In this document: in pieces, positions 25,408 through 26,237 of the stretch
Layout: every line of letters starts with the position of its first letter
Position numbering within the stretch: position 1 is the stretch's first letter
From: a bacterium
Lineage (GTDB): Bacteria; Patescibacteriota; Gracilibacteria; UBA1369; LOWO2-01-FULL-3
Reading direction: 5' to 3'
DNA: 29,692 bases
Assembly: GCA_027622635.1 (NCBI GenBank)
Contig: JAQBYK010000001.1
Span: 1-29,692 of the forward strand
The notes under the pieces: generated by a model
Seen by the model: the letters and a program-made list of their open reading frames with translations, nothing else
The model's database searches: none
What the model was told of the DNA's origin: nothing
Translations under genes and position numbers: made by a program

Positions 25408-25476
25408 ATCAACCAGGAATGATAAAAGGTAGATCTATTATGGTCACTAGAACCTCGATTGTAAAGATGAGTAAAC

Positions 25477-25845
25477 TAGACAGGAGTAGACAATTTAAGT
25501 AAAATCAGGCCGAAATTGTCTAGACAAAGCTTGCCTCTGTCTATAGACATAAATAGACAACAATTATGAATGTAGACAATACTCAAAAGCAGTTCGGTGT
25601 TAGCCGGGAAGGCGCTAGTAGACTATTAAAAGTGTCAATGCGGACACTAGACAGATACATAAAGTCAAAAAAACTGTCTACTCGTACTATAGCGGGGAGA
25701 ATATGGCTTGATAAGGGTGATATTGGGAGGTTTAAGAGTGAGGGGTATGGACAAATTAAAGTAGACAATGTCGACATGTCTACATTGAAAAAGTCTATAG
25801 ACAATCGTAGTAGACAAGTAGACAACGGGGTAGACAGGATAGACA
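25477..25845. repeat. Dense array of TAGACA/TGTCTA hexamers (17 exact copies) over the promoter and 5' half of the HTH gene
   Basis: TAGACA at 25477, 25487, 25521, 25544, 25554, 25573, 25648, 25762, 25798, 25811, 25819, 25831, 25840. TGTCTA at 25517, 25538, 25675, 25777. Confidence 0.92.
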
Positions 25846-26237
25846 AGGTGGATGTTTTCGATGGGGATTCGGCTGGTTTTAAAATGCGGAAGAATGATGC
25901 AGAAGGCGGTACATATAAGAAACTTTTCAATGAGCTCCGGGAAGAAATTAAGGAAAAACAGGAGAGACTGGAGATCGCAAATTATAGAGTTGGGCAGTTG
26001 GAAGCCCAGCTCAGAAATAGCATTCCAATGCTTGAGTATCATAGGGAAAACTACGAAAAAAAGCGCTTTGAAGAAAATCTAAATAAAAAACTGGAACAAT
26101 CAACGAATTTAATTAAAAAACTGTCAATAAAACTAAAACAATCGAATTTTATTAAGCGCATATTCATAATTATATTGTTAATAATCCTTGCACTACAGCC
26201 ACTTTGGCTATTACCCCATCTGGATAATATCTTTTGA
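25566..26237 (+). CDS. MerR/excisionase-like HTH protein with coiled coil and C-terminal TM helix
   Basis: VSREGASRLLKVSMRTLDRYIKSKKL (HTH_17-like), a VD-rich linker, a heptad-rich segment at about aa 117-195, then hydrophobic IFIIILLIILALQPLWLL. Confidence 0.8.
   Translation: MNVDNTQKQFGVSREGASRLLKVSMRTLDRYIKSKKLSTRTIAGRIWLDKGDIGRFKSEGYGQIKVDNVDMSTLKKSIDNRSRQVDNGVDRIDKVDVFDGDSAGFKMRKNDAEGGTYKKLFNELREEIKEKQERLEIANYRVGQLEAQLRNSIPMLEYHRENYEKKRFEENLNKKLEQSTNLIKKLSIKLKQSNFIKRIFIIILLIILALQPLWLLPHLDNIF

Follow-up and report, generated by a model that had tools for sequence, protein, structure and literature searches.

The HTH gene and its TAGACA array

This study concerns one gene and the repeated DNA motif that covers its promoter and the first part of its coding sequence, in a window of 29,692 nucleotides (by window we mean the whole stretch of DNA that was analyzed) comprising positions 1–29,692 of the forward strand of contig JAQBYK010000001.1, NCBI GenBank assembly GCA_027622635.1. 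The source is a bacterium of the GTDB lineage Patescibacteriota; Gracilibacteria; UBA1369; LOWO2-01-FULL-3, referred to here as one of the Peregrinibacteria, and its assembly is fragmented (1,161,053 bp in 159 contigs, about 84% complete). The gene, which encodes a protein with a predicted helix-turn-helix (HTH) domain and is referred to here as the HTH gene, lies between a divergent gene for an FG-GAP/SLH surface protein and, on its right, two DUF881 genes and murI (Table 1), and the hexamer TAGACA, or TGTCTA on the opposite strand, is crowded around its start.

There are 17 exact copies of TAGACA/TGTCTA at 25477–25845, a span of 369 bp, of which seven lie 5' of the ATG at 25566 and ten lie within the gene. 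The assembly as a whole holds 436 copies (0.376 per kb), which predicts about 0.14 copies per 369 bp, and its second-densest 400-bp stretch contains four; the array is far beyond chance. With the looser motif TNGACA, 21 copies are found in the same interval and 23 in 25400–26300, compared with 1.4 per kb in the rest of the window. Close TAGACA pairs and palindromes are nearly confined to the array, the single other pair in the assembly being at position 10182 of contig C144, and TGTCTAGACA is found nowhere else in the assembly beyond the palindrome at 25516–25527. The direct pairs at 25477/25487 and 25544/25554 are each 10 bp apart. The in-gene copies occupy both orientations; seven of the eight plus-strand copies share one frame, in which they supply V-D, I-D or L-D codons, and the eighth, at 25811, is read as AGT AGA CAA. 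The initial annotation of this DNA had reported the 17 copies and their division into seven non-coding and ten in-gene copies, the two perfect palindromes and the 10-bp pairs, and the use of both orientations and more than one reading frame, with a rough chance expectation of about 0.25 copies; on recounting, every one of these counts holds. We consider it established that the array functions as a DNA element linked to the HTH gene.

Table 1. Coordinates of the array, the HTH gene, its encoded segments and the neighboring features in the window
Feature	Coordinates	Strand	Remarks
Upstream array block	25477..25559	unstranded	7 exact copies over the -35 box, spacer and 5' leader; last ends 6 nt before the ATG
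Palindrome TTGTCTAGACAA	25516..25527	unstranded	Perfect, 12 bp, two overlapping half-sites
Palindrome TGTCTATAGACA	25538..25549	unstranded	Perfect, 12 bp; unique in the assembly; recurs at the same place in many orthologs
In-gene array block	25573..25845	unstranded	10 exact copies and 4 TNGACA variants (25633, 25748, 25769, 25771)
HTH gene	25566..26237	+	223-residue winged-helix/coiled-coil/transmembrane product (predicted); homologs support the start at 25566
Winged helix-turn-helix, residues 5-58	25578..25739	+	AlphaFold2 block-mean pLDDT 79-90 over residues 11-60
Disordered VD/ID-rich linker, residues 62-110	25749..25895	+	pLDDT <50; holds 7 exact copies; VD pattern kept as peptide and as GTAGAC/ATAGAC codons
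Long helix, residues 112-198, presumed coiled coil	25899..26159	+	pLDDT 95-98; KQERLEIANYRVGQLEAQ ... P.LEYH.E
Hydrophobic C-terminal segment, residues 199-216	26160..26213	+	18 residues after K/R; 7 residues follow; read from sequence; helical in model
Promoter of the HTH gene (TAGACA, 17-nt spacer, TAAAAT)	25477..25505	+	Predicted, sigma-70-like, 10/12 matches
Divergent promoter (TTTACA, 17 nt, CATAAT)	25437..25465	-	Predicted, sigma-70-like, 10/12 matches; for the FG-GAP/SLH gene
FG-GAP/SLH surface protein gene	23326..25407	-	Divergent; first gene of a conserved leftward block
Right-hand neighbors	26211..28415		DUF881 26211-26828 (-), DUF881 26831-27556 (-), murI 27606-28415 (+); conserved

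Conservation of the array in Peregrinibacteria

The array was followed over 80 orthologous Peregrinibacteria loci, which were anchored on the invariant RTxDRY codons of the HTH and in which protein identity falls to about 30%. The density of TAGACA is 21 per kb in the 200 bp upstream of the gene, 7.7 per kb within the gene and 0.52 per kb in the flanks. The median number of upstream copies is four per ortholog, with at least three in 55 of the 80 loci, and the total reaches at least five in 67. That orthologs carry arrays of their own, a check put forward with the initial annotation, is thus borne out both for the upstream region and for the gene. In loci L066, L067, L075, L081, L082, L084, L086 and L092, the upstream copies number 6–11, with 0–1 copy in the gene and no VD linker (the Val-Asp-rich stretch that follows the HTH); as such lineages have upstream copies but none in the gene, the DNA element is independent of the VD peptide.

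The core of the motif is V-TAGACA, and the variants TGGACA, TCGACA and TTGACA are enriched 6- to 10-fold in the arrays. The commonest spacing between copies of the same orientation is 11 bp and most spacings are 9–12 bp, about one site per helical turn, with spacers ranging over 9–15 bp; the two orientations are about equally common over the orthologs. In the genomes of five relatives, close direct pairs outside the locus are at the level of a reversed-pattern control, which argues that the dense array belongs to the HTH gene and not to a regulon.

These features bear on the possibility that a factor other than the HTH protein binds TAGACA, either a different regulator or the sigma factor of RNA polymerase through the likeness of TNGACA to the -35 sequence TTGACA, the HTH gene being merely regulated. 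TAGACA is one base removed from TTGACA, which is itself enriched 6-fold in the arrays, and homologs with the same RTxDRY helix exist without arrays. However, TAGACA is preferred about 10-fold over TTGACA, and copies in both orientations and inside coding sequence would not be expected of promoters. Moreover, the array and the HTH are both invariant over the clade, and the dense array is found at the HTH gene alone in each genome examined, which fits a cis-encoded factor better than a global one. We therefore regard another binder as quite improbable.

Some occurrences of the motif lie away from the gene. A secondary peak of TAGACA at -1000 to -800 consists mostly of copies inside the FG-GAP gene of a few lineages. 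Further real arrays are present in L082 (-1020 to -885, and +3946 to +3999 from the anchor), L084 (-571 to -458) and L092 (-413 to -368), that is, 0.4–1 kb upstream or 4 kb downstream of the gene, and they are rich in TGTCTAGACA palindromes and in TGTCCA/TCGACA variants. At 207–209 kb in genome G304 (C1:207118-208823; L200), an unrelated gene contains tandem repeats of about 46 codons, in which TAGACA returns every ~138 bp and so yields a false local peak of the motif.

Silent-site selection in the coding sequence

The in-gene copies are maintained by the choice of synonymous codons. V-D is encoded as GTAGAC in 128 of 247 instances (52%) in the HTH gene, compared with 22 of 378 (5.8%) in the neighboring genes of the same loci, and I-D is encoded as ATAGAC in 48% of instances compared with 9.7% in the neighbors; the base that follows these GTAGAC or ATAGAC codons is A in 188 of 218 cases. 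When each of the 80 proteins was recoded synonymously 200 times with local codon usage, 60.1 in-gene copies of TAGACA were expected, whereas 388 are observed, and 44 of the 80 genes surpass all of their 200 recodings. For the gene of the window, nine copies are observed in this test, with 1.33 expected and a maximum of four in 200 recodings. The folded HTH carries sites too: the L/V-D-R codons of RT[LV]DR form a TAGACA copy in 42 of the 80 orthologs (in the window, the L-D-R codons form the copy at 25648), and TGTCTA follows in 38.

The array might instead be a by-product of a peptide repeat, VD(N/K) units of a tolerant disordered linker having grown by slippage, so that their shared codons would reflect recent duplication. 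The single frame of seven of the eight plus-strand copies, all encoding V-D, I-D or L-D, is in keeping with this, as are the predicted disorder of the linker and the retention of the VD pattern as a peptide. Against it stand the seven non-coding copies, the several lineages that have 6–11 upstream copies and no VD linker, the copies in both orientations and within the folded HTH, the spacers of 9–15 bp, which would not be expected from slippage of one unit, and the codon bias, which persists over orthologs of 30–60% identity. The peptide-repeat explanation is largely refuted, and we give it hardly any weight. The initial annotation had proposed that the VD-rich linker was shaped at the DNA level and had named retention of the VD peptide without the motif as a result that would refute its reading; the outcome favors that reading, and the view of the linker as a by-product of DNA-level selection is supported by these sequence comparisons. 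Whatever its function, the HTH gene is a clear natural case of a coding sequence constrained by a DNA motif, which is very probably the binding site of its own product. The silent-site selection is visible over the whole order, and the case should be useful for the study of overlapping codes and of cis-acting proteins.

Architecture of the predicted protein

At least 492 close homologs of the HTH protein were found, all of about 216–225 residues and all from Peregrinibacteria-type genomes of the candidate phyla radiation (CPR), and a profile search gathered 870 clusters at 50% identity. The public gene call P0001 (199 residues) begins at M25, which removes the first strand and helix of the HTH. 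An alignment of 125 family members was used as the input to AlphaFold2 and for the domain tallies, in which HTH_17 matches 121 of the 125 members and MerR matches 55. Confidence in the model is given in Table 1 as the predicted local distance difference test (pLDDT). The second helix of the HTH, which we take to be the recognition helix, carries the invariant residues R26, T27, D29 and R30 of RTxDRY. The best matches in the PDB by Foldseek had template-modeling (TM) scores, normalized by target, of 0.75 for Pukovnik Xis (PDB 4j2n), 0.72 for BldC on DNA (6ama), 0.66 for the pSK1 Par DNA-binding domain on centromere DNA (8csh) and 0.58 for RacA on DNA (5i44).

Beyond the linker, the model consists of one continuous helix over residues 112–222 (pLDDT ≥95), which includes the C-terminal segment. 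The long helix is the best conserved part of the protein, ahead of the HTH; a homodimer prediction for residues 108–223 gave a score of 0.29 against a mark of 0.32, which weighs neither way on self-pairing. Within the hydrophobic C-terminal segment, the motif LALQPLW is nearly invariant, and the segment is predicted to be a tail anchor of the transmembrane type and not an amphipathic helix. The MerR/Xis class of the HTH and the domain order, both proposed in the initial annotation, are supported by these fold matches, domain tallies and model, the order being that of a winged helix, a disordered linker, a long helix and a hydrophobic C-terminal segment. No functional name for the family was found in AlphaFold DB clusters or NCBIfam, and tblastn found no homologs in 72,556 plasmids. 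A feature search of the ESM Atlas returned clusters with DUF536 (RocS/Par-type) at a score of 0.90, which we regard as a lead only.

The association of the array with the HTH gene in cis, the coexistence of an invariant helix with an invariant motif and the membership of the HTH in a fold class known for phased cooperative binding together make it probable that the HTH of this gene binds the TAGACA array.

Promoters, neighboring genes and autoregulation

The array is placed between two predicted back-to-back promoters. Its first copy, at 25477, coincides with the predicted -35 box of the HTH gene, a point absent from the initial annotation; the spacer contains the second copy and the leader another five. 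Many orthologs share this promoter arrangement (TAGACA or TGGACA, 17 nt, TAnAAT). The -35 box of the divergent promoter stops 11 bp short of the first TAGACA, and its pattern CATTATG ... GTAAAG recurs in the orthologous upstream regions. As the -35 box of the HTH gene is itself a site, it is likely that the complex formed on the array represses the promoter of the HTH gene.

The synteny of the locus is conserved over the clade, in the order YbeY, GH18-like gene, SpoU methylase, FG-GAP/SLH, HTH gene, two convergent DUF881 genes and murI, the first four forming the leftward block that begins with FG-GAP/SLH. Counted over 79 orthologous loci, the FG-GAP/SLH gene is present at 57, the DUF881 genes at 59–60 and murI at 65; the initial annotation had rightly named DUF881 and murI as neighbors. 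At its 3' end, the HTH gene shares 27 bp (26211–26237) with the first DUF881 gene, and the same end-to-end layout is found at most orthologous loci. No integrase or att site was found near the HTH gene in the window and the conserved neighborhood, and none of the neighbors (FG-GAP/SLH, SpoU, two DUF881 and MurI) is a ParA, ParM or TubZ gene. A further conserved sequence, GGAATGA (TCATTCC on the minus strand), stands 8–12 nt before the start codon of the FG-GAP/SLH gene and 3' of its predicted promoter, in the window at 25395–25440 and in the same place in L013–L048; it is not a Shine–Dalgarno sequence.

Since the first TAGACA is the -35 box, plain autorepression is either a strong rival to, or a function added to, any role of the array in chromosome positioning. 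The main rival explanation is that the protein is an autoregulatory membrane-bound regulator of the adjacent envelope genes: a membrane-tethered repressor of its own promoter, and perhaps of the FG-GAP/SLH operon, with a large operator and no part in chromosome positioning, in which the anchor would serve for sensing or for regulated release, for example by cleavage in the transmembrane segment, which contains Q-P. The placement of the upstream copies over the -35 box, spacer and leader, the position of the array between two back-to-back promoters and the envelope genes next to it are all consistent with this explanation. So are the array-poor lineages, which retain one site within the promoter spacer, and a distant homolog (L007), in which an inverted TGTCA ... 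TGACA pair ~50–60 nt before the start resembles a simple ancestral operator. On the other hand, the ten extra sites, which reach up to 280 bp into the coding sequence, would be needless for repression, yet they persist through synonymous codon choice and place a constraint on the protein; the genome search gave no further clusters or pairs of sites that a released factor could use; only seven residues follow the transmembrane segment, which leaves no outside sensor domain; and the best conserved part of the protein is the coiled coil and not the HTH. On balance, autoregulation as the whole function seems rather unlikely, though it deserves serious consideration.

The copies in the leader could also act at the RNA level, either through an mRNA structure that masks the start codon or by recruiting an RNA-binding protein. 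A predicted fold of 25510–25600 pairs TGTCTATA with TGTAGACA across the AUG; however, this fold is no better than those of shuffled sequences (z = -1.5; 17 of 200 shuffles as good), no Rfam match was obtained, two of the copies are upstream of the predicted transcription start, near 25512, and the two orientations are about equally common over the orthologs. An RNA-level element is accordingly very improbable.

Chromosomal context

ParB_N was found in none of the six genomes of the order to which the window belongs, all of which carry the HTH gene, compared with 228 of 301 (76%) in the phylum; this tally includes one unpublished genome (G154), of which the claim about ParB is independent. Among the whole genomes searched (G000, G165, G259, G031, G058, G082 and G301–G303), ParB_N was likewise not found in any of the window's order. 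AAA_31 (ParA/MinD type) was not found in G000, G165, G302 and G303, with a partial match only in G301, and a search of five genomes for DivIVA gave no match. In sister families of the class, there are weak ParB_N matches (E values of 1e-7 to 1e-13), which may be other ParB-fold proteins.

In the closed genome G301 (1.437 Mb), the guanine–cytosine (GC) skew shifts between two levels at about 1,210 kb and 500 kb, and the HTH gene maps to 1,092.7 kb. In the 56% of this genome that was sampled, DnaA-box-like motifs form a trio at one place alone, at 1,197.7 kb, beside the 1,210-kb step. In G304, the skew steps are near 190 and 794 kb, the rising step being at about 794 kb, and the HTH gene is at about 683 kb. 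The distance from the HTH locus to the candidate origin is therefore about 115 kb in G301 and about 110 kb in G304 (8–9% of the chromosome), which is weak evidence for an origin-proximal position. On the contig of the window itself, GC skew just mirrors gene orientation. The use of dnaA as a proxy for the origin was dropped because this gene is at neither skew step in G301 (263 kb) or G304 (236 kb); in this clade, dnaA and the origin may be widely separated. A reading of the array as iterons of a replication origin was also rejected, as the protein is not Rep-like, there is no cluster of DnaA boxes at the locus and the skew step is ~110 kb away.

The skew of G303 (PGYE01000001.1, 998 kb; loci L093–L112) is peculiar in that it is -0.24 to -0.39 in all twenty 20-kb samples over 1–865 kb, on one strand, with no change of sign even around dnaA and irrespective of gene strand; unidirectional replication or an artefact is possible.

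Proposed mode of action

The reading that we favor, tentatively and with a little less than even confidence, is that the HTH protein loads cooperatively on its own array, represses its own gene and assembles into one membrane-attached nucleoprotein complex, which would make it a self-targeted transmembrane variant of the tethers represented by RacA, RocS, RicO and pSK1 Par. The winged helix, of the Xis/BldC/RacA type, would most likely recognize TAGACA, and more loosely TNGACA, at ~20 sites that are spaced at about one per DNA turn over the -35 box, the spacer, the leader and the first 280 bp of the coding sequence. Monomers or coiled-coil dimers would line up next to one another along a single face of the DNA, in the manner of BldC and Xis, and the loaded protein would occlude its own promoter, which would give autorepression and perhaps an effect on the FG-GAP/SLH operon through its back-to-back promoter. 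The result would be a single large nucleoprotein complex held to the cell membrane by the C-terminal transmembrane segment. As the sites are within the gene itself, we propose that the HTH leaves the ribosome beside its target, so that loading would be mainly in cis.

Such a membrane-fixed complex may position the chromosome as RocS, RicO and Par do, a role in keeping with the architecture of the protein, the extent of the array and the lack of ParABS; we consider this possible in a modest form and unlikely in a more ambitious one. In the most ambitious form, which we think unlikely, a single gene in the ParABS-less Peregrinibacteria would be both centromere and anchor: co-translational loading in cis on ~20 sites would produce one polymerized focus, the transmembrane tail would fix an origin-proximal locus to the membrane and the linker would be mainly a carrier of sites.

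Several observations weigh against these proposals. Array-less G302 is also without ParB, which makes the link of the array to the lack of ParB a loose one. The candidate origin was placed at a step of GC skew by the usual rule, in two related genomes with shared gene order, and skew is uninformative in G302, where it follows gene strand only, and in G303. A lineage with a shorter protein (L074, L076, L078, L079, L088 and L089) keeps the protein with 0–1 site, and distant homologs of the same build have no TAGACA array, which indicates that the protein can function when its own gene has no array. The TAGACA motif and the RTxDRY helix are both invariant wherever arrays exist, so that there is no covariation to read. 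No match to DUF536 (PF04394) was obtained for the window protein at E values up to 0.1, and the 25 families listed for the 125 members do not include it; the profile of the HTH family compared with PDB sequences gave RacA at an E value of 0.48 and Pukovnik Xis at 0.35, which is noise level. There is a single anchoring point here, whereas the sites of RacA and RicO are scattered round the origin. Finally, the orthologs are related and not independent samples, and counts across them overstate the support; kinship inflates these counts, yet silent sites at 30–60% protein identity should be randomized.

In the array-less relatives (the L074 group and genomes G273, G127 and G242), no substitute repeated hexamer was found upstream. 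The distant homolog L007, which belongs to G273 and has the HTH, coiled coil and transmembrane build without a TAGACA array, carries ~70–230 bp upstream two copies of a ~45-nt unit made up of a hairpin (gtagggaa ... ttccctac) followed by aaccacccatgc.

For the organization and segregation of chromosomes in ultrasmall CPR bacteria, the HTH gene and its array offer a concrete and testable candidate. If the most ambitious form is true, it would describe a motor-free separation of sister chromosomes in an ultrasmall cell. Bacillota would then no longer be the only home of the RocS/RicO/Par functional class, the HTH protein being its first member elsewhere, and no earlier member would have binding sites that shape the sequence of the protein. 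The array together with the soluble domain could also make a compact orthogonal tool for tethering DNA.

Comparison with known systems

The closest known systems, RocS, RicO and pSK1 Par, were not named in the initial annotation. Like RacA, these three proteins combine a MerR-type winged helix with a coiled coil and tether DNA to the membrane or the pole, and unlike RacA they carry a C-terminal membrane helix, which is amphipathic and MinD-like; a transmembrane domain can stand in for this helix in RocS (PMC11500499; bioRxiv 10.64898/2026.03.06.710092). Whether such tethers, a recently recognized class, occur outside Firmicutes is posed as an open question in the preprint on RicO (bioRxiv 10.64898/2026.03.06.710092).

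The partition protein Par of the Staphylococcus aureus plasmid pSK1, which we compared through its PDB match and the paper on RocS, resembles the HTH protein in being a one-gene system with an N-terminal MerR-type winged helix and a central coiled coil, the latter being presumed in the HTH protein. Its repeats presumably lie just upstream of par. The C-terminal stretch of Par is reported to be nearly identical to the membrane helix of RocS/MinD, and Par binds specific repeats on its own replicon (PMC11500499). However, Par is plasmid-borne and has DUF536 and an amphipathic helix, whereas the CPR protein is encoded in conserved chromosomal synteny, is without DUF536, has a fully hydrophobic tail and has sites that reach into its coding sequence.

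RocS of Streptococcus pneumoniae and RicO of Staphylococcus aureus have a winged helix, a coiled coil and a C-terminal membrane anchor in the order predicted for the CPR protein. They serve chromosome segregation by connecting DNA to the membrane in cells whose Par system is incomplete; in the order studied here, ParB was not found. In contrast to the single dense array of a 6-bp word at the CPR protein's own gene, RocS is thought to bind DNA without a defined site, and the nine 18-bp ricS sites of RicO are scattered and form neither repeats nor palindromes. Relatedness in sequence is not demonstrable between these proteins, which belong to Bacillota, and the CPR protein from Patescibacteria. 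RacA of Bacillus subtilis likewise combines a MerR-like winged helix with a coiled coil, binds centromere-like sites and fixes the chromosome to the envelope, but it has no membrane segment, anchors via DivIVA, which was not found here, and uses 25 GC-rich 14-bp inverted repeats over the origin region.

BldC of Streptomyces and the phage or transposon excisionases Pukovnik Xis and Tn916 Xis are small winged-helix proteins that bind direct repeats in head-to-tail order, in agreement with the ~11-bp phasing of the array; however, they are single-domain, soluble proteins without a coiled coil or anchor that act in development or recombination, Xis together with an integrase and att sites, whereas the CPR protein has 165 further residues, with a presumed coiled coil and a predicted transmembrane segment, and no integrase in its conserved neighborhood. 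In plasmid centromeres such as ParR–parC of R1 and the omega heptads of pSM19035, about 7–10 short direct or inverted repeats round the partition promoter serve as both centromere and operator, and their binders are ribbon-helix-helix proteins that work with an adjacent nucleoside triphosphatase motor. The CPR locus has a similar array of repeats at a promoter, but its binder would be a winged helix and there is no adjacent ParA, ParM or TubZ. Regulators of the ToxR/CadC type differ in having an OmpR-type winged helix and, beyond their one transmembrane segment, a periplasmic sensor, whereas the HTH of the CPR protein is of the HTH_17/MerR class and only seven residues follow its transmembrane segment.

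In conclusion, the CPR protein appears to follow the same three-part logic as RocS, RicO and Par, with four differences: a tail that is predicted to be transmembrane, no DUF536, a single dense array and sites placed in its own gene.

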